Positions 1,556-47,131 of a stretch of DNA of 56,969 nucleotides are shown one piece after another (position 1 is the stretch's first letter; each line of letters begins with the position of its first letter). The DNA is from a virus (lineage: Duplodnaviria; Heunggongvirae; Uroviricota; Caudoviricetes): positions 1 to 56,969 of the IMG/VR virus record IMGVR_UViG_2740892231_000011. One strand, 5' to 3'. The notes under the pieces are model-generated. The model made no database searches. It saw only the letters and a list, made by a program, of their open reading frames with translations, and was not told where the DNA came from. The translations under genes and the position numbers were made by a program.

Positions 1556-1580
1556 CCAGCCTATTATGGCTGGTTTTTTT
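1556..1580 (+). terminator. terminator-like hairpin
   Basis: CCAGCC-TATTAT-GGCTGG followed by a T-run. Confidence 0.45.
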
Positions 1581-4274: not shown

Positions 4275-4295
4275 TGCAATTAATAAAATGATTAT

Positions 4296-4321
4296 AGCGG
4301 CCTTACCTTAGTAAGGCCGCT
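4296..4321. terminator. 11-bp stem hairpin after the GmrSD-like gene (putative terminator)
   Basis: AGCGGCCTTAC-CTTA-GTAAGGCCGCT perfect inverted repeat; no clean T-run on the + strand. Confidence 0.35.
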
Positions 4322-4524
4322 ACTCACTATTAAATACTTTAATTTGCATCAAGAACAGCAATGTCAGCCCTAGGTCTCGGACTTTGTACCGCTTATCTTG
4401 TTTTCAAAAATCAGCTCGCATCCTGCACAGTTCAGCGCATTACGTTGTAGATCTGTGTTCTGGTCATTTGTTGATACGCGTACATAGCCAATAAGCATGG
4501 TAGATCCCCCTGACAAAAGCAGGA

Positions 4525-4938: not shown

Positions 4939-4949
4939 TTTTATTCAGG

Positions 4950-6701: not shown

Positions 6702-6704
6702 GGA

Positions 6705-8753: not shown

Positions 8754-9298
8754 GCCTCCATCGCTTTATCAGGTTTGTCGGTGTTACTGCCCTGACCGTT
8801 CTCTCTGTGACGATGCCCGTTATAGGCAAGCCGCATCGCTGACATGGTGGTGCCGCCGGAGTCGCACAGGTCTTTCACCTGTCCGGTCACTTCCGGGTCC
8901 ATTTCAAAACGTGCTTCAGGTGCATTGCGAAACGTGATCGTTTTACCTGCACCGTCCACCACGATCCCCTCCCGGGTCAGCGTCACGGACTGCCCCTGAT
9001 CGTCATAGACAGCCACCTCCCCCGTATGCAGCCCTTTCAGGCGGTAGCGCCGGTCCGACACCGTAACAACCACCGCATGAGAACGGTCGCCATCCGGAAA
9101 CAACACCACCGCTTCCGCACCGCTGTTTGCCCTTGCGGTAAAACCGTAGGGTTCAAGATGTTCAACCCCGGCTTTGGGTTCACCGGCAATCAGGGACACA
9201 TCCACGGTCTGACATTTCGTGGCGGCACTGATGCTTTTCACCACTGCCCGCCCAATCAGGCCGAGAAGTTGTCGCTGCATGGCTTCAATCGTCCTCAT
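8750..9298 (-). CDS. baseplate assembly protein V-like (spike), Mu gp45-like
   Basis: 182 aa; position and sequence consistent with baseplate spike. Confidence 0.65.
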   Translation of the reverse strand: MRTIEAMQRQLLGLIGRAVVKSISAATKCQTVDVSLIAGEPKAGVEHLEPYGFTARANSGAEAVVLFPDGDRSHAVVVTVSDRRYRLKGLHTGEVAVYDDQGQSVTLTREGIVVDGAGKTITFRNAPEARFEMDPEVTGQVKDLCDSGGTTMSAMRLAYNGHRHRENGQGSNTDKPDKAMEA

Positions 9299-10377: not shown

Positions 10378-11744
10378 TGCACTGGCACCTTCAGAGGGAT
10401 CACCGGCACAAAGCCGGGATGCGTAATGGCATTACGCCGGATAATGTCCGCGTCACGCGCCGCGTTATCAAACCAGGTCGCCGCCAGCACCAGCGCGGGT
10501 AAGACCTCATCCGGCGTGCGCTGAATGATCCGTGCAGACTGTTCAAGGCGCGTGTTGATATCCGCATTCAGATCTGCTTTCACCCGGCGCAGTGCCAGAA
10601 ACAGCGCATCACTGGTTGTTCGGGACAACTCCTTATCAATTGCCGTATTCAGTGTGTCACGAATGTCAGTCAGTTCTTCCCACGTCGGCAGGTCAACCGT
10701 GCTTTTCACCGCTGGTGCATTGTTCAGTGCCGGATGCGTGACGGAAGGCCAGCCAGTGCTCTGCGCGGGTGTTGTTGCCTGCCCCACTGCGGCATTCTGC
10801 ATCACCGCGGAAGTTGTTGGCGCAGGCAATCGGGTGACGGCATACGCCGCTTCGCTGATTGCGGTCGTACGAAGGGTGCTGGCAACCACGTTACGCTGTT
10901 GCGTCGCCGTGGCGGTGGTTTTACTGTCCGTTTTCCAGACGCCGCGCGGTTGCAGATCGCTGCCGAGGCTGACACCGGAAAGCGTTTTGATCATGGTGAC
11001 CAGGTCGCTGGCGTTACCATAAAGGCGTTTCCCGGTACGCCACATTTTCTGCACCTGCTCAACGAAATTTTTGCCTGACGATGGCGGCGGCAGAAGTACC
11101 GAGATATCCCCCTGCAACAGCCTGGCGGCATCCGATACGGCAGAATCCACCACTTTCATTGCATCAGAAACATACCCAAGCATTGTGCTGGCATTACCGA
11201 CGACGTCGTTCTGCACAAAATCTGCCACGCCATCGATACTGAAACCACTGAAGCTGTCACTGATGCAGTCATCCAGTGCAGAACAGGATGACATCAGCGT
11301 CTGCGCCGTCGCCGCACCTGAAGTGGGGTAAGAGAGTTCTCCCGCTTCGACAAACTTCAGGTCAAAGCGGACAATACGCCCTTCACTCTTCGATGTGCTG
11401 ACCCGAACTTCCCCGTCAACACAGACTTTCAGCTCACCGTAAGTCGGATGGACAAGCGTGCCAGGACCGGGTTTATTCAGCGCGTCAATCAGGCGATCGC
11501 GCTGGTCAAAGCAGTCATCTCCCACCACATAAGCTGCGATGGACGGGCGGAAAGTGATTTTCCCCAGGTCTTCGGTATAGGGTTTGTCGCGGTTCGGGTA
11601 TTCGTGCGTTTCCACACGGCGACCGGTTCCCGCACTTTCTTCTTCAACCTTAAACGGCACACCGCGAAATGACGCGTCCTGAAGTCTGTCTTTCCACGTC
11701 ATATAAACTCCGTACATAAAAAATCCCACCGGAGTGGGACTCAT
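10374..11744 (-). CDS. DNA circularisation protein N-like (Mu gp43)
   Basis: Starts ...MTWKDRLQDASFRGVPFKVEE; likely true start at the internal Met near 11702, which has a GGAG RBS and follows a hairpin. Confidence 0.75.
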   Translation of the reverse strand: MSPTPVGFFMYGVYMTWKDRLQDASFRGVPFKVEEESAGTGRRVETHEYPNRDKPYTEDLGKITFRPSIAAYVVGDDCFDQRDRLIDALNKPGPGTLVHPTYGELKVCVDGEVRVSTSKSEGRIVRFDLKFVEAGELSYPTSGAATAQTLMSSCSALDDCISDSFSGFSIDGVADFVQNDVVGNASTMLGYVSDAMKVVDSAVSDAARLLQGDISVLLPPPSSGKNFVEQVQKMWRTGKRLYGNASDLVTMIKTLSGVSLGSDLQPRGVWKTDSKTTATATQQRNVVASTLRTTAISEAAYAVTRLPAPTTSAVMQNAAVGQATTPAQSTGWPSVTHPALNNAPAVKSTVDLPTWEELTDIRDTLNTAIDKELSRTTSDALFLALRRVKADLNADINTRLEQSARIIQRTPDEVLPALVLAATWFDNAARDADIIRRNAITHPGFVPVIPLKVPVQ

Positions 11745-11762
11745 TAACAGATTAATTTTTCA

Positions 11763-13598
11763 TTACCTGCCAAAGCGCGTATAGCCAACATCATGGCTGA
11801 CATCAAAACCGCTGGATCGCGTTTCCATAACCCGCATACCCGGAGGCGAATTCACAAAAGAGACCTTGATCTCACCATCAACTTTTGGCGCAGAAGCTTT
11901 GTTAATCATGAAGGGATTCGGGCCTGTGGCATCGGAGGCGTTGTTTGACTGAGCCGGATCTACCGCCGGATAAGGTGTGTATCCCCGTGCCGGTATTCCC
12001 GTCCCATAAGCATCATAAGCACCCGCGCCCCACTGCGCCGAGTTAATGGCATCAACCGTGTCACCGGAACTGTCGGTAAACCATTCAATAATCGGCTTCA
12101 GCTTATCCCACATATCCTGAAACCACTTAACAACCGGTCCCCAGTTATTGATTACCATCCCCAGCGGCGACCAGGCAAAAACCTTCTTCAGAAGTTCCCG
12201 GCCAGCCTCAAAATAAGGACCAATGGTTTCCCAGAGCTTCTTGAAATAAGGTCCGACAACATCCCAGTTAGTGATAATTAATCCCGCAGCCAAGGCTATC
12301 GCCGTCGCAATCATTCCTATCGGCGTCATCGACATGATCCTGCTGACAATACTGATGGCACCGCCAACGCCCATCAATCCCAGTTTCAGAATCGCAAGAC
12401 CGGCAGCAAGCCCGACGACGCCGCGAATAACCCGGGGATTTTCATCCGCAAACTTCGTGAATTTTTCCCCTAACTCCCCCAGCCATTGCGTGATATTTTT
12501 GGCGTCACCAGAAAATGCGCCGCCAATAGCCGCAAGGCCGTTAGTTGCGGTCCCCGTCATTGCCTCCCACAGGTTGGACAGCGTACCAAGCTGGGCCTGA
12601 ACACGTTTATTCAGGCTGGCCTGTTTATTCATCTTCTGCTGGATCTGATCGTAACCATCCTTTCCTTTATCGATCAGAGCATTGACCACCTGAAGGGTTT
12701 CAGCATCATCACCAAATATTGCCTTAAGTACACCGGTTCGCTTAACGTCGGTCAGTTTTCGCAGCTTTGCCAGTTGCCTGAACATGTTATCAAGACCGCC
12801 AAAACTCCCTTTGCCGTCAGTAAAATCGAGCTGCACTCCGAGTTTCTGGCGGGCCATGACTTTATTGACGTCCCTGATTTTCTTAACGCTTAATCCGGAC
12901 TGGATAACTTTTCGCAGGGCATTACCTGCCGACTCCCCGTTCATCCCCATCTGATCCATCATGACGCTGATAGGGGCAAGGCTCTGTGCAGCCTGAAGAC
13001 CGTCCTTATTCACCATCTTCAGAACAGAACTGGTTTTAGTGAAGAAGGACAACATGTTGGTATCGTCAACGCCCAGATAAAACGCCTTCTGGATAGTGTC
13101 GAACAGCCCCATCATGTCTTCTGACGCCGTTCCGGTAGCATCCTGCATCTTTGCAGCAAACTCAGCAGCCGCTTCTGGTGTTTTTTTCAGTTGTACCGCA
13201 AGATAAGCTGTCGCTTTACCCACACCACCCAGAATGTTTTCTGCCGGGATCCCCTGACGCACCAGCATCTGCATCATGTTCTGGAAATCAGCCGTTGTAC
13301 CGGGTAGCTGGTTACCCAGGCCAATAGCCAGTTTATTGATGTCCTGAAAGCGCTTTCCAACCTCGCCGTTCGCATCCATCATGGCGACTTTCAGCCCGGT
13401 GGCGGCGTTTTCCTGATCGGCATAAGATTTCAGGGAAAGCGTCAGACCCGCTGCCAGTCCGCCACCAAGCGCCAGCCCACCCTGTGACGCTTCTTCCGCC
13501 TGGCGTTTAAATCCCCGGATTTTCTTTTGCATTTTCGACAGCGCCGGAGAAAGCCTGTCGACACCGGTGATCAACGCCTTAAGCTCAAATTCAGCCAT
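11763..13598 (-). CDS. tail tape measure protein
   Basis: 611 aa, Gly/Ala-rich with hydrophobic segments, downstream of the chaperone pair. Confidence 0.8.
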   Translation of the reverse strand: MAEFELKALITGVDRLSPALSKMQKKIRGFKRQAEEASQGGLALGGGLAAGLTLSLKSYADQENAATGLKVAMMDANGEVGKRFQDINKLAIGLGNQLPGTTADFQNMMQMLVRQGIPAENILGGVGKATAYLAVQLKKTPEAAAEFAAKMQDATGTASEDMMGLFDTIQKAFYLGVDDTNMLSFFTKTSSVLKMVNKDGLQAAQSLAPISVMMDQMGMNGESAGNALRKVIQSGLSVKKIRDVNKVMARQKLGVQLDFTDGKGSFGGLDNMFRQLAKLRKLTDVKRTGVLKAIFGDDAETLQVVNALIDKGKDGYDQIQQKMNKQASLNKRVQAQLGTLSNLWEAMTGTATNGLAAIGGAFSGDAKNITQWLGELGEKFTKFADENPRVIRGVVGLAAGLAILKLGLMGVGGAISIVSRIMSMTPIGMIATAIALAAGLIITNWDVVGPYFKKLWETIGPYFEAGRELLKKVFAWSPLGMVINNWGPVVKWFQDMWDKLKPIIEWFTDSSGDTVDAINSAQWGAGAYDAYGTGIPARGYTPYPAVDPAQSNNASDATGPNPFMINKASAPKVDGEIKVSFVNSPPGMRVMETRSSGFDVSHDVGYTRFGR

Positions 13599-13773
13599 GT
13601 GTGCGTTTCTCCTGCTCTATCCTGTTTGCCTGACTGACCAGCAAGGGAATTTCACTGATCGGCATATTCAGCAATTCGAAGGGATTAATGCGCCAGTAAC
13701 TGGCGCAGTCAAAGAAGCGATCAGTGAGGTATTCAGCCGTCAGGCCTGGAGGAAAAAACCAGCCACAAGCCAC
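13591..13773 (-). CDS. tail assembly chaperone, -1 frameshift extension ORF
   Basis: Overlaps the upstream chaperone ORF by about 34 nt in the -1 frame; slippery heptamer T_TTT_TTC lies in the overlap. Confidence 0.5.
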   Translation of the reverse strand: MACGWFFPPGLTAEYLTDRFFDCASYWRINPFELLNMPISEIPLLVSQANRIEQEKRTHG

Positions 13774-14009
13774 GCCGCTGCATTCAGGTCTGCCGGAGAC
13801 ATCTGGTCGACAGAGCTTTGCGGCACTTTCGCCAGCCGCACAATGTATTTCGACACCACATGCGCCAGAAGTCTGACGGACTCATCCTGATTCATCTGGT
13901 AGGGATACCCCAGCTCGCGGACATCCTTCCCGGTGGGTTCATCAAACTCCAGTACGGAGAGTGTCTCGCCATGAGCGATAATCGGTTTCTTTAACTCAAG
14001 CTCTTTCAT
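13740..14009 (-). CDS. tail assembly chaperone (Mu gp41-like)
   Basis: 89 aa between tail tube and tape measure genes; ends at the slippery site. Confidence 0.6.
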   Translation of the reverse strand: MKELELKKPIIAHGETLSVLEFDEPTGKDVRELGYPYQMNQDESVRLLAHVVSKYIVRLAKVPQSSVDQMSPADLNAAAWLVAGFFLQA

Positions 14010-14365
14010 TACTGGTAATCCCCTTCTTCACCGTGGAACTCAAGATCAACCGTGCCTTCTTCGGCATTATGGTTCGCTTCGCCGTGCAGCCAGGCTGACG
14101 ACAATACATAGACCTGACCGTTCGCCAGCTCAGCAGTGATGGTCATCTCATCAGACGAGGTGATTTTACTCACAGGAAAATTCTTCGGCACCTTGAAGGT
14201 CCCTTTAACATAGGGCGCACGGTGAGTTTCCTTGCGGTCCACTGAACCGTCCAGGCCGATGATGTCATCATTGACCGTCCTGTTCATGGGCACCTCAATG
14301 CCGCCGGTCAGCGATAGCTGCTGACCGTCAATTTTGAAATAACAGGTTCCCCCGATACGGGCCAT
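14009..14365 (-). CDS. tail tube protein
   Basis: 118 aa immediately downstream of the sheath gene. Confidence 0.7.
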   Translation of the reverse strand: MARIGGTCYFKIDGQQLSLTGGIEVPMNRTVNDDIIGLDGSVDRKETHRAPYVKGTFKVPKNFPVSKITSSDEMTITAELANGQVYVLSSAWLHGEANHNAEEGTVDLEFHGEEGDYQ

Positions 14366-15861
14366 TATGCAGACTCCTCTGAATACTGAAGACGGAACTG
14401 GTTAACCACGGCAAAGACACGCAACTGGTTAACATAGTCAGGCGGGAACAGCGTGTTCAGGCGGTTCGGATCGCTGGCATCACGCTCCACAACCAGGTAC
14501 TGCTTGAACAGTTCGTAGTTTTCCACGATCCCCGCACGCTCGAGCTGACGGTAGGTTGCCAGCAGTTCCCCTTTGATCACTGCCGGGGTGACAATCGCCT
14601 GACCGGGACCAAAGCGGGTACCGTCACTGGCAAGCTTGTGACGCCCGTACTTACTGGTAATGACGGATTTCAGTTTGCGCAGTACATACGCGCTGGTATG
14701 CAACGTCTCGCTGTCGAGGTAGCTGTTATCCGCAACCCCGTAAGCGTTTTTCCTGTACGTGGTGACATCACGCTGAATGCGCAGTACCCCGCTTTCGACA
14801 TACGCCGTTGCCACGCCATGAGACAGCAGGGTCTGTTGTTCGGTCATCGTGAACCGTTTCCCCTTCGGCGCAGGCAGCATACCCACCAGCTCACCGGTCT
14901 GCGTGGGACGTGCCGGATCGTTGCGGATAAACACCGCTGCGCGGGCGGTACGGCTTGCCGCCAGCTCATCGGCAGGCGTCTGGGTGTCTTTTTCGTACCC
15001 CGCCAGGGTAATGTGCTGCTGGTTAAACTGGTCACCTGCGGTCACCAGTTCTGACAGCGTGCCGATCTTTGCCGTATACACATGGCCATACAGCTGACGC
15101 GCATAGCTCCAGCGACCGCTGGTATCGTTCATCTCGGTCACCAGCGTGTTAAGGGAGGCCGTGTCGTTGAACGGCAGACCGATATAATCAAACGGCTCAT
15201 CCGCCATTGCAGCCACCGCGCCGGTGAGAACCGGAGCGCCCGTTCCGGCGGTCCCCGCCGCCACGGCAATCTGTACGCCCGCTGGCAGCACTTCGCCCCC
15301 ACCGAAGCCGTAGTAATTGAGGCTGACAGGAATTTCATTCCCGCAAAGCCCCTTATGACGCGCGGTCAGTGTGACCACGCCAGCCGAAGATGAGGCCGTA
15401 AACGGCAGGGCCGGAACGGCATTGATGGCATCTTTGATACTGCTGGCAATCGTCGCGACGTTATCGCCGTTGGTCACCGGTGCCTGCACGCGGGTACGTC
15501 CCACATAAACATTCACCGTGCCGGTTTCGGTTGCCGCGCCGGTCACCGTCAGCGTAACTGTTGCCGCCGCGCCCGTGGATTCAGGAACGGCAATCACATA
15601 CAGTTCACCAAACGGGTCGGTCTGGCGATAAGCCTCGACCATACGCGCCAGCTGACTTCCCGCACCACAAATCTGGCGTGCATAGTCTGCCGATGGCATC
15701 AGCACCAGACTGTTGGCAACAATCTCTGCACCGTTATTGGCATGACCAATCAGCAGCGATGCTCCGCTGTCCTGTGCAGTATTCGCCGCCGAGTTATCCA
15801 TTTCCGCATAAAACAACGGAACCAGCGTATTCGACGGAATGGTGTTAAAGCTTATCGTCAT
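14365..15861 (-). CDS. contractile tail sheath protein
   Basis: 498 aa, sheath-like sequence; sheath-tube-chaperone-tape measure order. Confidence 0.85.
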   Translation of the reverse strand: MTISFNTIPSNTLVPLFYAEMDNSAANTAQDSGASLLIGHANNGAEIVANSLVLMPSADYARQICGAGSQLARMVEAYRQTDPFGELYVIAVPESTGAAATVTLTVTGAATETGTVNVYVGRTRVQAPVTNGDNVATIASSIKDAINAVPALPFTASSSAGVVTLTARHKGLCGNEIPVSLNYYGFGGGEVLPAGVQIAVAAGTAGTGAPVLTGAVAAMADEPFDYIGLPFNDTASLNTLVTEMNDTSGRWSYARQLYGHVYTAKIGTLSELVTAGDQFNQQHITLAGYEKDTQTPADELAASRTARAAVFIRNDPARPTQTGELVGMLPAPKGKRFTMTEQQTLLSHGVATAYVESGVLRIQRDVTTYRKNAYGVADNSYLDSETLHTSAYVLRKLKSVITSKYGRHKLASDGTRFGPGQAIVTPAVIKGELLATYRQLERAGIVENYELFKQYLVVERDASDPNRLNTLFPPDYVNQLRVFAVVNQFRLQYSEESA

Positions 15862-21327: not shown

Positions 21328-23061
21328 TTAAAGCGAGCGGATCCCATAGGACTCAATGTGGTCAGACAGCGTGTCTTCTTTCTCGTACAGCATGGCTCTG
21401 CCAACCGCCATAATCAGCGCAACTGCACCATCGATTTTGTTTTCCGCCTGCTCTTTGACGGGCTTCACCACATCATCGTTACCCGGAATGGTTTTGCCGA
21501 CCACGTTGCCGATACACCAGGTCATGATGGGATTGCCATCATGATGAAAGCGCCCCGATTCAATTGCCGCTTCCAGCTCTTTCATCGGGTCGGACATGTT
21601 GGTGTAGTTCTGAATGATAGTGACGGGATTCAGGTCTTCATCAGCAAGGTCATGTGACAACCCGGTCGCCCCGAAGGGGTCGATGGGTGACTCACTGACC
21701 GGGCTGATTTTGTTCGCCGCTTTGGCCTCCTCGAGGATGTAGCGATAATCCACCTCCGCACCATCGGTAACGGTCAGAACGCCCATTTCCACCCATTTCT
21801 GAAAGCGTTCGGCTGTCCGTCGATCTTCATTTTTCTCGACGCTGTACACCGTGTCATACGGTACCCAGAAACGCGGGGCCACACTGTAGTAATGCGTTTT
21901 ACCGTCAATCTCGCGGGTATAAAGTCGCGCCATGCTGTTCATATCCAGCTTATGCGCCAGGTCAAAGGCCAGAATGCACGGCTGCCCCTCGAACTGCTCA
22001 AGGGTCAGTGATTTATCCTCGCAGCTCTGCCAGCTCACCAGGTTGAAATACGCCGAACGCGCCGACACCCAGATATTGAGGTGTTTTGTTTTAAAGACGT
22101 TTGCCAGACGGGCGTTATTTTTCGCACGCTGCTGCTGACTTAACAAAAATTCGCGATAAACCGACACGCCAATATTTGGATTGGCTTTTTCCAGCACCTG
22201 CGGGTCGGTCCAGTCGTCACCTTCATCAACGGTATAGATGATCCCGAACAGTTCATCATTAGGCACCGAGCCGTTGAGCATCTCGATGACTTCCCGCCGT
22301 TTGTCGTAGCACGGCCCCTCAATGTTGTACCCGGCGGTAGTGATAGCCCACATCAGTGGCTGACGTCGCGCCCCCATCCCGGTAAGCATCGTGGTGTAAA
22401 GCGCATCGGTGGCGTGCTCGTGATATTCATCCACCACCGCACAGTGGGGTGATGAACCATCACCGGGGTTACCGATCAGCGGTTCAAAACGCGCACCATC
22501 CTCCGGACGGTTCATGTTTGAGGCGTTAACCTCAATCCCGAACGCTTCCGTCAGCATGGGTGTGCGTTTACACATCAGTCTTGCCGGACGAAAGACTTCC
22601 CATGCCTGTTTCTCCGTCGTGGCACCGGAATACACTTCCGCGCCGAACTCGTTATCACAGGCAAAACAATACAGGGCGACACCGGCAGAGATTGCCGATT
22701 TGCCGTTCTTACGGGGGATTTCGGTATACACCTCCCGGAAGCGGCGCAGCCGGGAGCCTTTATTGACCCAGCCAAACGCGCAGCAGATCACAAAGAGCTG
22801 CCACGGCTCCAGCGTGATGGGCATCCTCTTAAATGCCCACTCACCCTTGGTGTGCGGCAACAGCTGAATAAATTTGGCGGCCCGTTCAGCCAGGTCCTTG
22901 TCGAAGCGGTAACGAAACGACTTACTTTTTTCCGCCATCAGGTCATCAAGATGGCGCTGGCAGGCCTGAATCACAAACTGGCAGGCCACAATCTTTCCGC
23001 GCACGACATCCCGGGCATACTGATTGGCAGCATTTACGTTGGGGTAAGATTTCCGGCTCAT
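21328..23061 (-). CDS. terminase large subunit
   Basis: 577 aa with ATPase and nuclease regions (EIPRKNGKS Walker A-like; VVDEYH). Confidence 0.9.
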
Positions 23062-37611: not shown

Positions 37612-37830
37612 GTGGAGAAACATATGCTGAACCTCGATTGTGTTCCTATCTCAACTTATTGCAAAGAAACTGGCGAAACTCCTGAAGCAATAAACAAACG
37701 TGTACAGCGCGGTGTTTGGCGTGAAGGTGTTCAGGTTTTAAAGGTTGAAGGCGTTAAGGAGAGGTGGATTGATCTTAGTGAGGTTGCAAAATGGGCCAGA
37801 CAAAACTGCTCAAACTACCGCGCGGCGTAA
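37612..37830 (+). CDS. excisionase-like protein
   Basis: Small basic protein directly upstream of and overlapping the integrase start. Confidence 0.45.
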   Translation: MEKHMLNLDCVPISTYCKETGETPEAINKRVQRGVWREGVQVLKVEGVKERWIDLSEVAKWARQNCSNYRAA

Positions 37831-38987
37831 CAATCAGGAAACACCGCCAGGGCGAAACGATCAATATAACTTTCACCTACAAAGGAGTTAAATGTCGTGA
37901 GCCTCTTTCCAATCTGGAAGTAACACCAAAGAACATTAAATACGCCGAGCGCACACTCGGCGAAATTCATAATAAGATCGAAAGGGGAACATTCATTTAT
38001 GCGGAATATTTTCCCCGTTCTGCTCGTTTGAAAATTTTTGGTAATGCTGCTGCAGGCAAAACGGTAAAAATGTACCTGGACGAATATCTTGAAATCTGCG
38101 AAACGAGAAAACTCTCACCCTCAACGATTGGTGGTTATAAAAAATGCCGTAGTGCGTTAGCCTCACTCCACATTTGCCCTGCAAGTGAATTAACACCAGC
38201 AATCCTGAAAGCGTGGATTCAAAGTCAGAAAACGACCTTAAAAACAATTCGCAACCAGTTATCTTTCCTGCGGTCAGCACTTGATGAAGCCGTAACCGAT
38301 GGGGTACTTCAAATTAACCCCGTATCGTTGGTAACTGCTTCGCGCTACCAAAGTGATAAGTCAGAAGCAGAAAGTTGCTACGTGGTTGATCCGCTATCAC
38401 CAACAGAAGTTGATGCATTACTAGCAGCAGCCGGAAACAAACAATGGGAGAATCTGTTCCGGTTCGCTATACATACAGGCCTGCGTAGTTCTGAATTATG
38501 TGCCCTTAGATGGCGTGATATCGACTTTGTTGGAAAAACTGCCCATGTCCAGAACGCAAGTGTTGTCGGTGTTATCAAAGGAACAAAGACAAAAGCCGGT
38601 ACTCGTAAAGTTGAACTGACAGAAGAGGCAATGTTGGCGCTGATAAACCAGAAGCCATTTACATTCATGAAGGATGCTACTGTCTTTGAAGATCCAAAGA
38701 CAAACAAACCGTGGGCCAGCGCCGATGCGATAAGGAAAAAAGCGTGGATACCAACCTTGCGTAAAGCTGGTATCCGGTACCGTAACCCATATCAGACCAG
38801 GCATACATTCGCCACCAGCCATATCAGCCGTGGTGCGAACCTGTTCTGGCTTGCAGCTCAAATGGGGCATAAAGGGCCGGAAATGCTTTTCAGGCATTAT
38901 GGTTCGTATCTCGTAGACTATGATGGCAAGACAGCTTGTAAGGACCAAGTATCAAAAAATCCGGAGAACATGAAAATTGAGAAGTAA
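37791..38987 (+). CDS. int: tyrosine integrase (lambda-type with arm-binding N-terminus)
   Basis: 398 aa; C-terminal catalytic region with R...HTFATSHI...LGH...Y-type motifs; positioned near the att repeat at 41255. Confidence 0.85.
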   Translation: MGQTKLLKLPRGVTIRKHRQGETINITFTYKGVKCREPLSNLEVTPKNIKYAERTLGEIHNKIERGTFIYAEYFPRSARLKIFGNAAAGKTVKMYLDEYLEICETRKLSPSTIGGYKKCRSALASLHICPASELTPAILKAWIQSQKTTLKTIRNQLSFLRSALDEAVTDGVLQINPVSLVTASRYQSDKSEAESCYVVDPLSPTEVDALLAAAGNKQWENLFRFAIHTGLRSSELCALRWRDIDFVGKTAHVQNASVVGVIKGTKTKAGTRKVELTEEAMLALINQKPFTFMKDATVFEDPKTNKPWASADAIRKKAWIPTLRKAGIRYRNPYQTRHTFATSHISRGANLFWLAAQMGHKGPEMLFRHYGSYLVDYDGKTACKDQVSKNPENMKIEK

Positions 38988-39177: not shown

Positions 39178-40443
39178 ATGTTGATTGAGTTTACAGTACA
39201 AAACTATAAATCTATTTCAGAGAAACAAACACTGAGTTTAGTTGCATCAAAACTTAACGATTTGCCTAATAATCTGTTCAGTATTGATGAACCTAAATCT
39301 CTTGAATTGCTTAAAAGTGCTGTGATTTATGGCCCTAATGCTGCCGGAAAATCAAACATTATTAACGCTATTACAACTATGGCTGAACTTATTGTCCGGT
39401 CTGCTACAGGTTATAAAAGTGGTGATAAACTTGATATCACGCCTTTTAGACTAGACTCAAAGAAGATTAATCAACCATCTGAATTTGAAATTAACTTTAT
39501 TTCCGAAGGCATCAGATACCAGTATGGTTTTTCTGCAACAGAAGATTTTATTCACGACGAATGGTTATTTGCATTCCCCAAAGGCAGACCACAAAAATGG
39601 TTTTTACGTCTATGGGATGAAGAAAAACAAACCCATGAATGGGAGTTGGGGCCATCGTTGACAGGAGAAAAACAAACATGGTTGAAATCAACTAGGCCTA
39701 ATGCGCTCTTTCTTTCTACAGCGGTACAATTAAACAGTGTACAACTAAAACCTGTATACGATTGGTTTTATTACAAAGTTAAATTTACTGAATTAACAGG
39801 TTGGGATAGTGATTACAGTGCAAAGCAATGCTTAAATGATAAGAAAGATGAGATTCTCAATTTTTTAAAAGCTGCCGATGTAGGTATTGATGACATTCAT
39901 GTAACAAAGGAAAAATTCAATCCCAATGCTCTTCCTGATGATATGCCTGCAGCCATCAAGGAACTAGTGATTAAGAATATGCAAGGCAAGGAAGAATATG
40001 TCATTAAAACACTTCATAATAATGAGGCTGGAGAGCCAATTCCATTCGATTTAAAAGATGAATCGCATGGAACTAGAAAAATCTTTAGTTTCGCGGAACC
40101 CTTATCACATTCACTCGAGACAGGAAACATCCTGTTTATTGATGAATTAAATGATAACTTACACCCCAAATTAGTTGAGTTTATTGTAGGTTTGTTTCAC
40201 GATAAAAATATCAATAAGAATGGTGCCCAGTTAATCTTTACAACTCATGAGACGTCTATTTTAAATCAAGATGTTTTCAGACGAGATCAGATTTGGTTTG
40301 TAGAAAAAGACAATTCAAAGCAAACAAATCTTTTCCCACTTACGGATTTTAGTCCAAGAAAAGGAAGGGAGAATTTAGAAGCTTCTTATCTTGACGGTAG
40401 ATATGGGGCTTTACCACTCATTGGGAAATGGGAGAGATATTAA
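39178..40443 (+). CDS. AAA/ABC-type ATPase, AbiLi / RloA-like
   Basis: Walker A GPNAAGKSN near the N-terminus; Walker B-like ILFIDELNDNLHP; AT-rich; start of the next gene overlaps its stop. Confidence 0.7.
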   Translation: MLIEFTVQNYKSISEKQTLSLVASKLNDLPNNLFSIDEPKSLELLKSAVIYGPNAAGKSNIINAITTMAELIVRSATGYKSGDKLDITPFRLDSKKINQPSEFEINFISEGIRYQYGFSATEDFIHDEWLFAFPKGRPQKWFLRLWDEEKQTHEWELGPSLTGEKQTWLKSTRPNALFLSTAVQLNSVQLKPVYDWFYYKVKFTELTGWDSDYSAKQCLNDKKDEILNFLKAADVGIDDIHVTKEKFNPNALPDDMPAAIKELVIKNMQGKEEYVIKTLHNNEAGEPIPFDLKDESHGTRKIFSFAEPLSHSLETGNILFIDELNDNLHPKLVEFIVGLFHDKNINKNGAQLIFTTHETSILNQDVFRRDQIWFVEKDNSKQTNLFPLTDFSPRKGRENLEASYLDGRYGALPLIGKWERY

Positions 40444-41129
40444 TGGGAAGCGAAGATCTGTTCAAAAAAAGAAAGGCTCGGCGTAATAATGAATTCAAAC
40501 GAGTTAGTAAAGCACGAGCTCAAATGAAGAAAATTCTCATCGTCTGTGAGGGAGAGAAGACTGAGCCCGCATATTTTACAGATTTTATAAAACATTGCCG
40601 TATAAGCACGGCAAGCATAGTTGAGATTTCTGGAGAGTGCGGCTCAAGCCCTATGAATGTGGTATCTTGGGCAAAAGAAAAATATAATACGGAAAAGAAA
40701 AGGAGCGACCCTTATGATAAGGTTTATTGTGTCTTTGATAGAGACGCTCACCCTAACTATGATGAAGCTCTTAGCAGGATTAATTCCTTAAATCCAAAAG
40801 GGATTTTTGTTGCTATAACTTCCATACCATGTTTCGAGTACTGGCTGATACTACATTTTGGATACACCCGAAAATCATTTTCACCTCAGAAAGGCAAAAG
40901 TGAAGGCGCACAAATGCTAGCTGAGTTAAAAAAATACATGCCAGATTATGAGAAAAAGGCATCAGGTGTATTTAATAAATTGCAAGATCGGCTCGATACG
41001 GCATTAATCAATGCTAAAAGAGTCGAAGATGCCGCCAAAAAAGACGGGTCGATAAATCCTTCAACTAAAGTTGGCGCTTTGATTACAGATCTAATTAACA
41101 TTCGTGATGACTTTGAAAATGAGAAGTAA
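40428..41129 (+). CDS. RloB-like protein (AbiLii-like partner)
   Basis: KILIVCEGEKTEPAYF motif characteristic of RloB-like proteins as I recall them; operonic with the ATPase. Confidence 0.6.
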   Translation: MGEILMGSEDLFKKRKARRNNEFKRVSKARAQMKKILIVCEGEKTEPAYFTDFIKHCRISTASIVEISGECGSSPMNVVSWAKEKYNTEKKRSDPYDKVYCVFDRDAHPNYDEALSRINSLNPKGIFVAITSIPCFEYWLILHFGYTRKSFSPQKGKSEGAQMLAELKKYMPDYEKKASGVFNKLQDRLDTALINAKRVEDAAKKDGSINPSTKVGALITDLINIRDDFENEK

Positions 41130-41254
41130 AAATAACATGTCATGATGTAGCGACGGCAGCATGTTTAAGTTCAAATGGCAAAGTGTACGCGAAGTATACG
41201 CGAATCAAAAACAATAGAAAAAACGTATATTTTACAAAAGATTATATAAATTTT

Positions 41255-41285
41255 GACGCGGGTTCAACTCCCGCCAGCTCCACCA
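41255..41285. repeat. att core (right copy): attR of prophage 1 / attL of the IntA-type element
   Basis: 31-bp exact copy of the ssrA 3' end GACGCGGGTTCAACTCCCGCCAGCTCCACCA. Confidence 0.8.
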
Positions 41286-41408
41286 CTTTTTAGTTGTTTG
41301 AAGTTCAATGAAGTCTACTAAGCCCACACAGCACAAGCTCTGCGGGCTTTTTTACGTCTATTGTCGTCCAGTGAGAATTGCTGAGAACTACGAGTTATGG
41401 CACCCTGA

Positions 41409-42680
41409 ATGGGACCCACTAAGAAGGGTCCAAAAACCGAGGGTCCCAAAATGGCAAAAATCGCTAAGAAGCTCACTGACACTGAAATCAAAAGCACCAA
41501 GCCAGCCGATAAAGAAATCAACTTGTTTGACGGTGATGGTCTGATTCTACGAATCGCTCCTTTGGCGAAAGGAGGCAAGAAAAATTGGTATTTCAGGTAT
41601 GCAGTACCAGTGAGCAAGAAAAGAACCAAAATGAGCCTTGGGACATATCCTCACCTTACCCTTGCAAGAGCCAGAGCCTTACGTGATGAATATCTCTCCT
41701 TTCTGGCAAATGGTGTTGATCCCCAAATCCATAACAACGATAAGGCGAAGGCATTAAAGAGTGCTACTGAGCACACTCTCCAAGCCGTAGCGCGGAAATG
41801 GTTAGATGAGAAGGTAAAGACATCAGGTATCTCACAAGACCATGCAGCAGACATCTGGCGCAGCTTAGAGAGAAATGTCTTTCCCGGTCTGGGTAATGTC
41901 CCTATCAATGAGATCCGACCTAAGCTCTTAAAACAACACCTTGATCCTATTGAGCAACGAGGCGTATTGGAAACTCTACGCCGTATCATTTCACGTCTGA
42001 ATGAAATCTTCCGGTGGGCAGCTACTGAAGAACTTATTGAGTTCAACCCGGCTGACAACCTTGGTCAAAGATTCAGTAAACCAAAAAAGCAAAATATGCC
42101 TGCCCTTCCCCCAAGCGAATTGCCAAGGTTTATGGAATCTTTGACGAATGCGTCAATCCGGTTGGAAACACGTATGCTAATTGAATGGCAATTGTTGACA
42201 TGGGTTCGTCCGGGTGAAGCCGTTCGCGCAAGGTGGTCTGATATTGATACAACCAACAGCATTTGGAACATTCCTGCTGATTTCATGAAAATGAAAAAGC
42301 TTCACAAAGTTCCTTTGAGTAAAGAAGCTTTGCGCATCCTTGAATTAATGAAATCAATAAGTGGGCATAGAGAATGGGTTTTCCCCAGCATAAAAGCGCC
42401 TCTTAATCATATGCATGAACAAACAGCCAACGCAGCTATCATCCGAATGGGGTTCGGAGGCGAGCTTGTAGCTCACGGTATGCGTTCTATTGCACGAACA
42501 GCGGCAGAGGAGTCTGGTAAATTCAGAGCTGAAGTTCTTGAGGCAGCGCTTGCCCACTCGAAAAAAGATGAAATTATCGCAGCATACAATCGTGCAGAAT
42601 ATCTGATAGAGCGACAGAGTTTGATGCAATGGTGGAGTGATTACGTTCAAGCTCAAAGATCAAATGCTCTGGTAGCCTAA
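41409..42680 (+). CDS. tyrosine integrase, IntA/P4 type (ssrA-specific family)
   Basis: N-terminus KLTDTEIKSTKP...LFDGDGLILRI resembles CP4-57 IntA; C-terminal catalytic domain; likely start at MAKIAKK near 41451; adjacent to the att repeat. Confidence 0.85.
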   Translation: MGPTKKGPKTEGPKMAKIAKKLTDTEIKSTKPADKEINLFDGDGLILRIAPLAKGGKKNWYFRYAVPVSKKRTKMSLGTYPHLTLARARALRDEYLSFLANGVDPQIHNNDKAKALKSATEHTLQAVARKWLDEKVKTSGISQDHAADIWRSLERNVFPGLGNVPINEIRPKLLKQHLDPIEQRGVLETLRRIISRLNEIFRWAATEELIEFNPADNLGQRFSKPKKQNMPALPPSELPRFMESLTNASIRLETRMLIEWQLLTWVRPGEAVRARWSDIDTTNSIWNIPADFMKMKKLHKVPLSKEALRILELMKSISGHREWVFPSIKAPLNHMHEQTANAAIIRMGFGGELVAHGMRSIARTAAEESGKFRAEVLEAALAHSKKDEIIAAYNRAEYLIERQSLMQWWSDYVQAQRSNALVA

Positions 42681-42718
42681 GTATCAGAATAGCTAATATA
42701 ATCCTGAAGGTAAAGAAA

Positions 42719-43135
42719 ATGGAAACCCTATTCAAAGTTTTTGAAAAATTTAGTTCCAGACCACTTTTTTTTATTTTTTTCGGACTCTCACTTTGTGAAT
42801 TTTTTCAGAAACAATCTGTTCTGATGAATCCATCAGCAGATAACATCGCGAAATTATTCGCAGCCATGATATTAGTTGTTTTTTTTACTTGGGGATTTGA
42901 ATGGCTAATCTTCAAGTTCAATGTAAACCTTGAACCTCATGATCAAGGCGATATTGGACCAACAATTGGAACGGCTACTTTAGCTGTATACTTAGTTTAT
43001 GCCTTTCACTTTCTCAGTGAAAATCCTGAAGCATTAAATTTAAAGTTATTAACTAACTCTGGCTTTATATACAGCACAACTCTATTATTATTCTCATTAG
43101 AATGCATGAAGCTTAGAAGACTTAAACAAAAATAA
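42719..43135 (+). CDS. hypothetical polytopic membrane protein
   Basis: 138 aa with about 4 hydrophobic helices; AT-rich. Confidence 0.5.
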   Translation: METLFKVFEKFSSRPLFFIFFGLSLCEFFQKQSVLMNPSADNIAKLFAAMILVVFFTWGFEWLIFKFNVNLEPHDQGDIGPTIGTATLAVYLVYAFHFLSENPEALNLKLLTNSGFIYSTTLLLFSLECMKLRRLKQK

Positions 43136-43355
43136 ACAACATCATTGTGATGATAAATATAAAATAGGCATGGCGAAAAAAAATCACCACGCCTAAAATA
43201 TAATAATTATGGTAGCATCATTGATACATAATCCACACCAATCCTTGAGCTATACTGAGACGCTATAGCCTGATATCTTTCTGCATAACCAGTTCTCAGT
43301 TGAGATTTAAGTTTGAGTCGGACAGGAACATTTTGCACGTTGCCATCCATATTAC

Positions 43356-44972
43356 TTAAAAACACGGCAGAAATAATATTTTTTCTTCGCCATCAACTGT
43401 TGTTCCATGATTCAACACCACCATATAATCAACAACAGGAAGCGTTTTATCCCCTTCGAAAATAGAGAGATATTTTCTTTGATTTTTATGCATTACATAT
43501 ATATATTTCGAATGTTCAGCAAATGGCAATGCTTTACTCTGACTGGCGTTAAAAAGCTCCAGAACTTTAATGAGCCTGTGCGGACTTAATCTTACATGGT
43601 GAGGGTCGTTACCCTGAGTAGGAACCAAATCACATGCCGCAGATACACATAAATACCATTTGTTCGACTCTGTATCAAAGAAAATAGTGCCAGTAGAAAT
43701 ATGACCATCTTCAAAATTCTTTGAAGACAAATTCATATTTAAAGCATGATACATTTCGTGATAAGTATCATTATTTGATGGCAGATCCATTTTTGAAGAG
43801 CAATATTGGAGCAATGCAGCAACTCCGCTGTTAGCGTATTCATTTGAATAGCTATCAAAAACACTTTTGATAAATTCATCCAGCGTATTATTATTTTTAA
43901 GTCTTTGATAAAGCTCTTCTGATAAATTACCAAATACAAAGTCAATATTTCTACATCTAATATCAGGCGAGTCTGATTTTAATATCTCATTTAACCACGC
44001 AGCTTGACCGTAATGATCGTTAGCCAAATGATTTACAAAAGATAAAGCCTCAGCTTCGATTGCATTCTGAATTTCAGATTTTATTAACTGATAATAAGAT
44101 GGTTTCCATTCAATGAGAGAATCATTGAGAGTTTGCCAAATCCTATCTCCATCGTTTTCATGATCATCTTGAACCTTATGAAATAGGGAGACAAAGATAT
44201 TACCACATTGAATCCATTTTACTCCGCTTTCATCACCCCGAATGACATTGCCAGATGTGTTGCTAGAAATAATTGCATTTCTAGACACAGCATATTCTGC
44301 AATCATTTTTGCAATGAAGTTTTTATCCTTTTGATCCTCCAACACAGCATCATCATGTATTAATCTTTTAATTCTTCTACAAGGCTTACTGTCTTTAATA
44401 TAGGCTATTGTTTCATCTCTTGTGAGAGCTTTATTACCATTATCATTTAAGTTCGGTAATACAACGTCTTCCCAATAACTTTGGACATCTTCATTATCGT
44501 AGTCAATGATCAAGCTGTTGATATCCAGAGCACCTTTGAGAGTCGATGATATCTGCATCCAAACCGTTTCTAAATTCTCTCTAGTATATATTACAATCAT
44601 ATTTAAATGATCGGAGTCTTTCAAATCTTGTAATAGTTTAAGTGTTTTATCAGGTGCATTATTATCAAGATGATAATCTACAATAATAAGATCTGATTTC
44701 CTAATCCGATCCACATCGAAATTAACAGAACCATTGTCAACATCACAAATCATATTTTTAGATTGAAAAAAGCTCTCAAGAGTAGCGGCTCGTTTAGATG
44801 AGTCAATTTTGTTGTAGTCTAAATCAACTTCGTTATTCAACGCCCTGATTGATTCAGAATACGTCAGAAAATCGTCATCAATCATGACAACGGAACGAAT
44901 TGCATTTTCGCAGAAAGTTTTCTGGACAAGAGAATTATAATTTGCCACTGTCATATTAGAACTCCACTCCAT
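43356..44972 (-). CDS. receiver (REC)-like domain protein fused to an unrecognised C-terminal domain (candidate effector)
   Basis: N-terminal VVMIDDDF ... DLIIVDYHLD ... MIVIYT resembles CheY-like receiver motifs (acidic pocket, phospho-Asp, conserved Thr); about 380 aa beyond with no known motif; coupled to the upstream kinase ORF. Confidence 0.6.
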   Translation of the reverse strand: MEWSSNMTVANYNSLVQKTFCENAIRSVVMIDDDFLTYSESIRALNNEVDLDYNKIDSSKRAATLESFFQSKNMICDVDNGSVNFDVDRIRKSDLIIVDYHLDNNAPDKTLKLLQDLKDSDHLNMIVIYTRENLETVWMQISSTLKGALDINSLIIDYDNEDVQSYWEDVVLPNLNDNGNKALTRDETIAYIKDSKPCRRIKRLIHDDAVLEDQKDKNFIAKMIAEYAVSRNAIISSNTSGNVIRGDESGVKWIQCGNIFVSLFHKVQDDHENDGDRIWQTLNDSLIEWKPSYYQLIKSEIQNAIEAEALSFVNHLANDHYGQAAWLNEILKSDSPDIRCRNIDFVFGNLSEELYQRLKNNNTLDEFIKSVFDSYSNEYANSGVAALLQYCSSKMDLPSNNDTYHEMYHALNMNLSSKNFEDGHISTGTIFFDTESNKWYLCVSAACDLVPTQGNDPHHVRLSPHRLIKVLELFNASQSKALPFAEHSKYIYVMHKNQRKYLSIFEGDKTLPVVDYMVVLNHGTTVDGEEKILFLPCF

Positions 44973-46674
44973 TGAACTGGATCACAAAATTAGCGCCATC
45001 TTTTATTAAATAGTTATCGCCTTCATCAGGTTCTGAATACCATATTTTATGATGTGCAACAGCAAGGTTTTCTCGACATAGATACAGACCTACCCCATGT
45101 CCATTTGCTCTTTTGCTATAAAATAGTTCAAATAGTCGCGGGATATCATCGGTATCAATTGCCGGACCAGAATTTGCTATGATAACCAAAGAATTCACAA
45201 AACCAATCTTTATGAGCCTATTATTTGACAGACTGACCCAATACATTGCATTGTTGATAATATTAGTAAAAACAGGATAGATCCTTGATGGTATATCTGT
45301 TATTGCGATTTGCTTAAACTCTTCACTAAATTCAATAGTTATTCGTTGCCGTTCGAAACGCTCCCCAAAGAACTTCAGGACATAATCCATGATATTTTTT
45401 CCAGTTATTCTCTGCCTGGATTGATAACCTGATATTTTCAAAGGTGATAAGAAACGTATTTGTTGAGTAAGCGATCTGTGAGCATTTAACGCCAATGAAA
45501 AACCAGGGTGTTCTTTTACAGAAGTAGGAAGAGAGTTTAGTCCTCTGGTTACCATAGAATCCATTTCTTCAAGTTCATGAGATATTATCTCAACACTAAT
45601 ACCTAACTGTGCAAGCGCGTTTAAACTTTTAGCTTTTTCTTCAAAATATGAGCGTTCTTCTTCAGATAATGAGAATGCTGAATCTAAGTTTATACCTTCA
45701 AATAATCTATCGAGACCTTTTATTATTGATTGATATTTGAAAGTTAGGGTATCAACTGACTCAACATATAAACTATCGAGCAAATTAAACACATTTTCAA
45801 TTTGTGAATCATTATCTATTGAATCAACAACTGATATAGTTTTAGCATAATAATCACTTCGATCAACCTTTATTTCATCGGCCCATTTTTTTAAAAGAGA
45901 ATGTATCTTCTCCTCTATCGTGTTATTAAACTTAGTTAGTTTAGAATTAATAATACCTTGATTTTTTTCAAGGTGATTTTTCGCTGCCAATGAAGGCTCA
46001 AGTTTATTTAATTCAGAATCAAGTTTATTAATTGCTAACTTCATTTGTAGAATATACGCAGAGAACTCATTAAATTTATCTCTGTAGTCTCTATATTTCT
46101 CTTCATACATTCCAAGTTTTGGAGGTTTGATAGGCGTTTTAATTTCACTGCGCAACGCATCTAAGTTTGTAAGATCACTGTCTATAATTTTAAGATAGTT
46201 TAAATCTAACGAACCATCAGTTTTATCAAGCTTAGTTTTCAGCCTTTTAACAGCCTCCAAGGAAGCATCAAGAACTGGTGTCTGATTCTTCAAAGCTTCT
46301 GAAAAACTTTTTTGTGTTGATTTTCGAGCTTGTTGTTGAGCAGATTTTCTTAACTCTTTTTCACGCTTAACTTGTTCTAAAAGCTCTTTACGGTCATCAG
46401 AACGTGAACCAAAAAATCTATCAGCAAGTTCAGTTAACAAATTAGATATAATAGTTTTCAGTTCTCTTGCAGCCTGGTTTCTTATGAATCCCTCTCTCCC
46501 CGACTTATCTTTCAGCTCTTTATTACTGGATTGAGTAATTCCAATATAACCAAAAATCCTTCTATTAGACCAATAATATCGCCCTGCATTCCATGAACGT
46601 CTTTCTTCTATCTGGAAGAAATCATTATCTACTCGACCATAAGGTAATACTCTCAAGCTATCCCTAAAAATCAT
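44956..46674 (-). CDS. histidine kinase (5'-truncated by IS insertion)
   Basis: C-terminal H-box-like ISHELEEM, N-box FTNIINNAMYW and G-box GHGVGLYL; the frame stays open upstream to about 46800 where it meets the IS end, so the N-terminal sensor region is missing. Confidence 0.65.
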   Translation of the reverse strand: MIFRDSLRVLPYGRVDNDFFQIEERRSWNAGRYYWSNRRIFGYIGITQSSNKELKDKSGREGFIRNQAARELKTIISNLLTELADRFFGSRSDDRKELLEQVKREKELRKSAQQQARKSTQKSFSEALKNQTPVLDASLEAVKRLKTKLDKTDGSLDLNYLKIIDSDLTNLDALRSEIKTPIKPPKLGMYEEKYRDYRDKFNEFSAYILQMKLAINKLDSELNKLEPSLAAKNHLEKNQGIINSKLTKFNNTIEEKIHSLLKKWADEIKVDRSDYYAKTISVVDSIDNDSQIENVFNLLDSLYVESVDTLTFKYQSIIKGLDRLFEGINLDSAFSLSEEERSYFEEKAKSLNALAQLGISVEIISHELEEMDSMVTRGLNSLPTSVKEHPGFSLALNAHRSLTQQIRFLSPLKISGYQSRQRITGKNIMDYVLKFFGERFERQRITIEFSEEFKQIAITDIPSRIYPVFTNIINNAMYWVSLSNNRLIKIGFVNSLVIIANSGPAIDTDDIPRLFELFYSKRANGHGVGLYLCRENLAVAHHKIWYSEPDEGDNYLIKDGANFVIQFNGVEF

Positions 46675-46795
46675 TAGTCCTGCATACTTTTTGGCCTTAA
46701 GATCAAAGTGGGAATGTTCACGTTCAGTATGTGATGTATTTTGTGAAAGGAATTCAAACGTTCCTATCTGAAGCTCAAATGGGCCGACCCCTGCG

Positions 46796-46863
46796 TGATC
46801 CTACCCACGTAATATGGACACAGGCCTAAGCGAGGTTCTTGTTTTCAAATTGTTCCGGACTGA
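46796..46863 (+). mobile_element. IS3-family insertion sequence, left terminal end (rest hidden in gap)
   Basis: TGATCCTACCCACGTAATATGGACACAGGCCTAAGCGAG resembles IS3-group termini; the same end recurs at the window end. Confidence 0.6.
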
Positions 46864-46873
46864 NNNNNNNNNN
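46864..46873. other. assembly gap (10 N)
   Basis: Run of N immediately after the IS end; probably a collapsed repeat, so adjacency of the flanks is not proven. Confidence 0.95.
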
Positions 46874-47131
46874 TGAAAAGGATTGCCGTCCTTTCGCAGC
46901 CTCTGACCACCAACGATAGCAAGAGTATCGAGGCAGCTATGAGAAATCATATCACACACCCGCAAGGGCGGGACTCGCACAACCTGAATAAATTCACCTG
47001 GCGCTTTATGCAGTGCCTGACAGACAGCATTGCAATATTCACCGTTACCGCTGCCACTGAGCACGAAGCACGCGCCCAGCTGCCGCACGCACATCTTATT
47101 TTTGTCGCCCGTATCCGTCAGGAGGTGACTC

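Follow-up and report, generated by a model that had tools for sequence, protein, structure and literature searches.

Does a histidine kinase gene lying beside a receiver gene, in an AT-rich block next to a phage-type integrase, mark a working antiphage signalling system of a new kind? The question was raised by a sequence-only reading of IMG/VR virus record IMGVR_UViG_2740892231_000011 (the window, by which we mean the whole stretch of 56,969 nucleotides), which saw in two coupled minus-strand genes at 43356-46863 a candidate two-gene, Detocs-like defence system with an effector of a possibly new family. Our analysis gives a different answer: with a probability of roughly 0.95, the pair is a real kinase/receiver pair and also the decayed remnant of a mobilisable island integrated at ssrA. 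The following features, given with coordinates in the window, are needed for the argument.

44956..46794, minus strand: kinase remnant, equal to residues 380-991 of the intact protein, with coiled-coil, DHp and HATPase_c
44956..46674, minus strand: kinase open reading frame (ORF) as listed, 572 amino acids (aa), opening at an internal Met at 46674
45433-45609, minus strand: DHp (HEF_HK) domain of the kinase, by Pfam
45016-45291, minus strand: catalytic HATPase_c domain of the kinase, by Pfam
43207..44954, minus strand: receiver-effector gene at its intact extent (582 aa; Response_reg_2, helical region, beta-rich C-terminal domain), a pseudogene in the window
43356..44972, minus strand: receiver ORF as listed, 538 aa
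44169..44954, minus strand: receiver (REC) domain (residues 1 to ~262), whose beta4 and beta5 are separated by a helical insertion
43380..43793, minus strand: in-frame part of the effector domain, residues 388-525 of 582, with conserved HALN, TGT and CVSAACDxVP motifs
46796..46863, no strand assigned: terminal stub of an IS3 element at the kinase truncation breakpoint, where homology to the related locus L010 stops (46796)

Both ORFs exist on the minus strand as described, and the block is indeed AT-rich, with a GC content of 0.33-0.37 across 43-47 kb against 0.51-0.59 in most 1-kb bins of 6-33 kb. The identities proposed for the two proteins also held, at a level far above chance. Within the 572-aa kinase ORF, Pfam assigns HEF_HK to residues 356-414 (26.2 bits; cut-off 24.1) and HATPase_c to residues 462-553 (E 1.8e-11), and the motifs that had been quoted for it are the H-box, the N-box and the G2 box; the receiver matches Response_reg_2 over residues 25-181 (E 3.1e-31). 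For the receiver gene, the likely start is 44954, Met7 of the ORF as listed, which lies 1 nt past the kinase stop at 44956.

The suggestion of a new variant or family fared less well, for the pair is already known and, in the window, degenerate: its family has Pfam entries and a paper. Bellieny-Rabelo, Pretorius and Moleleki (2021; PMC8011034) described the family computationally and created PF19191 (HEF_HK) and PF19192 (Response_reg_2), which already cover the pair. They reported the two genes as linked in 91.6%, HATPase_c_3 on 83% of the kinases and an enrichment of C5 methylases and restriction-modification (R-M) domains nearby, and proposed a cytoplasmic two-component system related to paraMORCs. 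The window proteins pass both Pfam cut-offs, their genes are adjacent (44956/44954), and the receiver has the acidic pair, the phospho-acceptor Asp, the Thr and the Lys of the family. They differ from it in that the kinase is without the N-terminal HATPase_c_3, no C5 methylase gene lies beside the pair and the receiver gene is frameshifted. The GHKL N-terminus and the methylase are missing because of a deletion.

The extent of that deletion emerges from loci free of the insertion sequence (IS), whose comparison, as had been proposed, recovered the full kinase: 988-994 aa with an N-terminal GHKL ATPase. By tblastn, the intact 991-aa kinase of locus L008 matches the window from residue 380 on only, in frame up to 46794, two bases from the IS3 end at 46796-46863. 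The suspicion that an IS had truncated the kinase was thus well founded, and a full IS3-family transposase is annotated at the breakpoint position in RefSeq genomes. The deleted residues 1-379 encode HATPase_c_3, a MORC-like GHKL ATPase that is present in intact relatives, and intact 988-aa kinases, 99% identical over the remnant part, occur in Salmonella, Serratia and Klebsiella. No homologue of the C5 DNA methylase was found by tblastn anywhere in the window, and DNA of the methylase or of the N-terminal kinase region of the window's allele was found in none of 5,426 complete Escherichia coli genomes. Only the last 74 bases of the methylase/N-terminal-kinase probe are matched in 555 E. coli genomes and, among the 12 matches listed, all begin at the identical base. 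The loss of the methylase and the kinase N-terminus looks like a single old deletion that later spread. About 10% of complete E. coli genomes carry the remnant, the region 43300-46900 matching over 500 complete E. coli chromosomes at 99.9-100% identity, and GenBank AJ304858.2 (prophage CP-1639 and its integration site) labels the same block 'remnant integrative element'.

The second lesion lies in the receiver-effector gene. An A6 tract at 43379-43384, against A7 in most E. coli copies, amounts to a 1-nt deletion that ends the frame at 43356 and drops the last 57 residues, which are readable only in another frame (43207-43379); the RefSeq homologue WP_000214990.1 has the full 582 aa. Lost with this part are six invariant residues (Q552, R554, Y557, R571, G573, D575) and the modelled last two strands and terminal helix. 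The A6 allele is genuine: 77 of 560 carrier genomes have it, NZ_CP030331.1 marks it 'frameshifted' and RefSeq treats it as a pseudogene. In sum, an IS3-associated deletion took the methylase gene and the first 379 kinase codons, and a 1-nt deletion subsequently cost the effector its final 57 residues.

Could the pair nevertheless work as first proposed? Detocs, reportedly described by Rousset et al. in 2023, is said to consist of a kinase, DtcA, a buffer receiver, DtcB, and an effector, DtcC, in which a receiver is fused to a nucleoside phosphorylase (PNP). The likeness holds at the level of logic, in that a cytoplasmic histidine kinase is predicted here to phosphorylate a receiver fused to a toxic effector, but it does not extend to the parts. 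No DtcB-like stand-alone buffer receiver lies beside or between the window pair or among the recurrent neighbours of 46 related loci; the effector has no nucleoside phosphorylase (no Pfam match at E<=10, and structural neighbours among MazF and CcdB); and the sensor of the intact unit is a GHKL ATPase with an obligate DNA methylase partner. A search of PADLOC-DB v2.0.0, a release in which the presence of Detocs models is unverified, returned no match to Detocs. A working two-gene system in the window, its kinase phosphorylating the receiver-fused effector in defence against phage, would have in its favour the real and adjacent kinase and receiver domains, the DHp and catalytic domains that the truncated kinase keeps, and the defence genes in the neighbourhood (AbiL, AbiTii, GmrSD). 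Yet the kinase is without its first 379 residues and any verified start, the frameshifted effector lacks six invariant residues and its last strands, the obligatory methylase is absent, and PADLOC match, buffer receiver and PNP effector are all wanting. We regard this reading as barely credible.

Nor is the intact system one of two genes: the relatives carry a third, for the C5 methylase, and a kinase with the GHKL N-terminus. Two loci from other Enterobacterales, L010 and L011, occupy the same ssrA site with 99% DNA identity over window positions 41249-46796, and there the gene order is integrase, 138-aa ORF, receiver-effector (582 aa), kinase (988 aa) and C5 methylase (402 aa), with mobilisation genes, including a relaxase, beyond the methylase; in L010 the intact operon spans 8812-14717. 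The same trio is found in Enterobacter chromosomal islands, in Acinetobacter Tn7-like transposons and in an 85%-identical ssrA island. Within the enterobacterial islands, the end of the methylase gene overlaps the beginning of the kinase gene, whose stop codon precedes the receiver start by 1 nt.

A wider scan took one genome per species and searched the ORFs of 46 loci with hidden Markov models of the three proteins. These loci span Gamma-, Alpha- and Betaproteobacteria, Planctomycetota, Opitutaceae and Myxococcales, and in every one with enough flank (about 40) the methylase, a kinase of about 1000 aa and the receiver-effector stand side by side; the exceptions are contig-end loci and a single E. 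coli remnant copy. Apart from the trio, only integrases (10 loci), Vsr genes (10 loci) and Tn7 genes (6 loci) recur, and no conserved fourth gene, whether nuclease, antitoxin or buffer receiver, was found in the neighbourhoods of the 46 loci. The intact unit is a tightly packed module of methylase, GHKL-kinase and receiver-effector on mobile elements. Whereas the methylase appears in PMC8011034 as an enriched neighbour, it is here an obligate third gene; the same paper gave no assignment for the domain at the C-terminus of the receiver protein.

The Vsr gene encodes a very-short-patch repair endonuclease of about 149 aa and is present in L027, L036, L038, L040, L041, L045, L048, L049, L050 and L056. 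Such a neighbour is expected for a C5 methylase and, as far as gene content goes, argues for methylase activity in vivo.

That the output domain belongs to no recognised family was correctly seen. Over the C-terminal 318 aa there is no Pfam match even at E<=10, and the domain found no match in NCBIfam, PADLOC or PDB sequence and profile searches; the only PHROGs matches were families of unknown function that derive from the same E. coli protein. A model of the full-length receiver-effector (P0001), built with 59 homologues, reached a predicted local distance difference test score (pLDDT) of 86.6 and places a helical insertion between beta4 and beta5 of the receiver, a helical region at about 268-410 and then a beta-rich domain. 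Within this last domain fall most of the invariants that remain outside the receiver: L405, N406, G422, C436, C441, P445, Q552, R554, Y557, R571, G573 and D575. Modelled alone (residues 388-582; pLDDT 84.1), the domain has as its top structural neighbours MazF and CcdB, which are RNase or gyrase-poison toxins, with the ToxN-like CptN at rank 12. The predicted fold resembles MazF/CcdB, a fold-level lead and not family membership, and an hhalign comparison with an alignment of MazF sequences gave a probability of 0.07%. The expectation of a new effector family is borne out in part, in that no sequence family covers the domain, while its predicted fold resembles one already familiar from toxins. 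Compared with MazF/Kid/CcdB and ToxN themselves, the effector domain shows no sequence similarity, is roughly double MazF in size and has a receiver fused to it; its toxin activity is a prediction. No small conserved partner gene resembling an antitoxin was found among the neighbours of the related loci.

A search for the effector domain in other architectures gave no lead on its identity. Among cluster representatives, 643 have the domain, which in almost all cases forms the C-terminal end of a protein of 550-680 aa; six long representatives that were checked carry Response_reg_2, and four shorter ones, probably fragments, have no Pfam match. It is essentially confined to the receiver-fused architecture, and guilt by association therefore gave nothing.

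The upstream parts of the relay are better defined. Among 59 receiver homologues, the acidic pair D26/D27, the phospho-acceptor D93, T124 and K260 are invariant, as is the SHELE H-box among 65 full-length kinase homologues. The kinase family is strongly conserved and retains complete GHKL motifs at its N-terminus (ExxxNxxDA, DNGCG, GEKGIGRLS) along with a long coiled-coil, the SHELE H-box and the N-box. The invariance of these receiver residues, together with the conserved GHKL motifs, H-box and N-box of the kinase, speaks for signalling competence. Residues 13-138 of the intact kinase weakly match the NCBIfam family of BbrUII/HgiDII restriction enzymes (E 1.5e-13, far below the family cut-off).

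Two details of the kinase deserve mention beside these. Its G1 box reads A-N-S-G-P, an invariant Asn replacing the Asp that usually contacts adenine in GHKL proteins (residues 915-923 of protein P0119; about 45100-45130 in the window). Its H-box has Glu, not Thr or Asn, at the fourth residue past the His. According to a 2026 preprint, PF19191 is without the T/N residue at +4 from the His, a residue tied to phosphatase activity. With this residue missing, the kinase may be unable to reset its own receiver, as judged from the motif.

We consider it possible, at somewhat under even odds, that the intact relatives represent an unvalidated immune or addiction class in which a GHKL-kinase reads the methylation set by a C5 methylase and relays the result to a toxin of MazF/CcdB fold. 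In such a scheme the methylase would mark the host's own or resident DNA, and the N-terminal GHKL ATPase of the kinase would act as a DNA-engaging sensor of unmethylated DNA, be it that of an invader or that of the host after loss of the element. GHKL modules of MutL, MORC and GHKL restriction enzymes engage DNA in an ATP-dependent manner. Sensing would switch on autophosphorylation at the SHELE histidine, and the phosphate would pass to D93 of the receiver. Phosphorylation dimerises many response regulators, and MazF and CcdB toxins work as dimers; phosphorylated D93 would likewise lead to receiver dimerisation, bringing together the C-terminal MazF/CcdB-fold domains, and the paired domains would be toxic, with growth arrest or abortive infection as the outcome. 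The idea of a DNA sensor is suggested by the resemblance of the kinase N-terminus to BbrUII/HgiDII, by the link of paraMORC GHKL proteins to R-M systems (PMC2292703) and by the enrichment of R-M domains near the pair (PMC8011034). In addition, the only copy seen without a methylase, the E. coli remnant, has lost the sensor domain as well, a pattern that agrees with a unit that does harm once its methylase is gone. This methylation-gated phosphorelay to a toxin-fold effector is offered tentatively, as a mechanism whose chances fall somewhat short of even. The window copy cannot carry it out, because its sensor and methylase are gone and its effector domain is broken.

A true R-M system is a rival reading. 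In it the receiver-effector, or the middle region of the kinase, would be a DNA endonuclease whose fold has gone unrecognised; unmethylated DNA would be its substrate, and the phosphorelay would serve only as a licence. The strict link to a C5 methylase, the Vsr gene in 10 loci, the GHKL N-terminus like that of BbrUII/HgiDII and the action of paraMORCs in R-M contexts (PMC2292703) all fit such a system, as does the lack of any other conserved nuclease gene nearby. Against it, searches with Pfam revealed neither a nuclease motif nor a nuclease family in the kinase or the receiver-effector, and the only structural neighbours of the effector model are RNase and gyrase-poison toxins, not nucleases of the PD-(D/E)xK, HNH or PLD types. 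A classical R-M system would also pair its methylase with a recognisable endonuclease, yet no such family turned up in the kinase, in the receiver-effector or among conserved neighbours, where Vsr is the sole recurrent nuclease. We consider an R-M system of this kind unlikely.

Many defence systems serve both defence and addiction, and the parts and signalling proposed above could have been selected for post-segregational killing that stabilises the mobile element. The module always lies on integrative or transposable elements, and its methylase-plus-toxin logic is like the selfish R-M behaviour discussed in PMC8011034. The joint loss of methylase and sensor in the E. coli remnant would suit addiction as well. 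The present data do not separate addiction from defence, and addiction as the selected role seems to us distinctly improbable.

Very doubtful, finally, is an ordinary regulatory role, in which the intact family would be a two-component system tuning the neighbouring methylase or R-M genes and the C-terminal domain would bind DNA or protein, as was suggested in 2021. No helix-turn-helix or other DNA-binding family was found by Pfam, and the top structural neighbours of the modelled domain are toxins. The unit also travels as cargo of Tn7-like and integrative elements with a methylase of its own, which is typical of defence or addiction rather than of housekeeping regulators.

Several observations weigh against our own account, that of a dead remnant in the window and a methylation-gated toxin relay in its relatives. 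That the GHKL domain reads methylation is something we only infer. The invariant residues of the effector (two Cys, D442, Q552, R554, Y557, R571, D575) fit no verifiable catalytic pattern of MazF. Searches of the accessible literature found no experimental work on any family member, and no model of PADLOC-DB v2.0.0 matches either protein beyond E ~0.002-0.03, the models concerned being unrelated and the scores at chance level. As regards the remnant, an intact receiver-effector ORF is kept beside the truncated kinase in 483 of 560 E. coli carriers, and this ORF differs from that of L010 by 10 synonymous changes and 1 non-synonymous change, counts too small to infer selection. The remnant may not be entirely inert in strains with an intact receiver-effector ORF.

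Among known systems, the closest counterparts of the sensor are the paraMORC GHKL ATPases, GHKL-Shedu (paraMORC3/VcSduA) and BbrUII/HgiDII, which share the N-terminal GHKL with ExxxNxxDA, DxGxG and GxxGxG motifs and the link to C5 methylases and Vsr. The GHKL domain of VcSduA is thought to control the effector fused to it (PMC12137116); the output here is instead a histidine-kinase core and a separate receiver-effector, not a fused nuclease. BREX type 2, or Pgl, comprises a kinase (PglW), a methylase (PglX) and a phosphatase (PglZ). This defence operon joins self-marking by methylation to protein phosphorylation, as is proposed for the present module, but Pgl has a Ser/Thr kinase, an adenine methylase and many more genes, and no His-Asp phosphotransfer. 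MADS was considered and rejected: no mad model matched the kinase or the receiver.

The window locus itself carries little weight, being a common decayed remnant that databases already treat as a pseudogene or remnant element; the interest lies in its intact relatives. These make up a three-gene cargo, widespread on Tn7-like and integrative elements from Proteobacteria to Planctomycetota, that is absent from PADLOC-DB v2.0.0. Should the proposed mechanism be true, it would wire methylation-based self-recognition to a phosphorelay and give prokaryotic MORC-type ATPases a concrete signalling role; self and non-self would be told apart much as in R-M systems, except that the restriction nuclease would be replaced by a two-component relay and an abortive effector. 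Near-identical (99%) intact operons in islands of Serratia, Salmonella and Klebsiella are open to direct cloning. The truncated 572-aa and 532-aa E. coli forms, for their part, have seeded PHROG families and, apparently, short gene calls, hiding the GHKL domain from annotation.

The short gene calls can be followed in Salmonella locus L059, where an intact 994-aa kinase gene at 3993-6980 is annotated as a 572-aa 'ATP-binding protein' (likewise P0193-P0202). The 572-aa annotations start at the same internal Met as the E. coli stump and leave the 1.25 kb that encodes the GHKL domain unannotated, which looks like the spread of the truncated E. coli gene model. Independent truncations in many species were considered as a source of such entries and rejected; since the L059 frame runs intact for 994 aa, the 572-aa entries in Salmonella and other species are an annotation artefact. 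The PHROG profiles phrog_7659 (532 positions) and phrog_8137 (572 positions) match exactly, in length, the receiver in its frameshifted form and the kinase in its truncated form, and evidently derive from the E. coli remnant picked up beside prophages.

Two further copies of the remnant are of note. In L001 (NZ_CP118014.1, E. coli B-766) the whole bamE-ssrA-integrase-receiver-kinase block is tandemly duplicated, with one receiver copy intact and the other frameshifted at a second site. L013 (DAIPZW010000118.1), labelled as a Bacteroidales metagenome-assembled genome, is a 5.6-kb contig with the E. coli remnant (truncated kinase and receiver) at 99% identity, and is probably a mis-binned E. coli contig.

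The setting of the pair is the mobile, defence-rich one that had been supposed. The window is E. coli DNA with the tmRNA gene ssrA at 40-402, and an exact copy of 31 nt of the ssrA 3' end (372-402) recurs at 41255-41285 as the attachment (att) site of an island. Because this repeat brackets an island of about 41 kb, two elements stand in tandem at ssrA. The first, 403-41254, holds AbiTii, GmrSD, a prophage with TerL and tail genes, an integrase and an AbiLi/AbiLii pair; the second opens with the integrase at 41409-42680, and the kinase/receiver pair belongs to it. The same order of integrase and module is found at ssrA in the relatives L008 and L010. The other features of the two islands are these.

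11763-13598: tape-measure-like tail gene, in the prophage inside the first island
21328-23061: TerL, a prophage gene inside the first island
37791-38987: integrase of the first island
41409..42680, plus strand: integrase of the second island, which carried the module (Pfam Arm-DNA-bind_3, Phage_int_M, Phage_integrase)
42719..43135, plus strand: hydrophobic ORF of 138 aa lying between integrase and receiver genes

The 138-aa ORF has no Pfam or NCBIfam assignment (Pfam gave only a sub-threshold Na_H_Exchanger match, E 0.028, and NCBIfam none). Being present in L010, L011, L014, L015, L019, L059 and L060 and absent from L008 and from the non-enterobacterial loci, it accompanies the enterobacterial islands and lies outside the conserved module.

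Both edges of the first island carry defence genes. Directly past ssrA, an AbiTii-domain gene (571-1491) and a GmrSD-type type IV restriction gene (2325-4274) make up a small defence cluster (571-4274) at the left edge. At the right edge, just before the repeated att site, the AbiLi/AbiLii pair (39178-41129) is RloA/RloB-like, with AAA_21 and RloB domains, and is recognised by PADLOC at E 4e-101 and 3e-29.

To the right of the module, a run of 10 Ns at 46864-46873 lies inside the IS3 copy and resembles a scaffold gap of a draft assembly, so that the join to 46874 onward depends solely on scaffolding. The complete genome NZ_CP030331.1 continues differently beyond the IS3, with a pseudogene and glaH-lhgO-gabD where the window has the DUF927 region. 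Beyond the gap, the window has a 712-aa DUF927 protein at 47870-50008, similar to P4-type primase/helicases, with small ORFs upstream of it; together these suggest a P4-like satellite or a CP4-57-like element.

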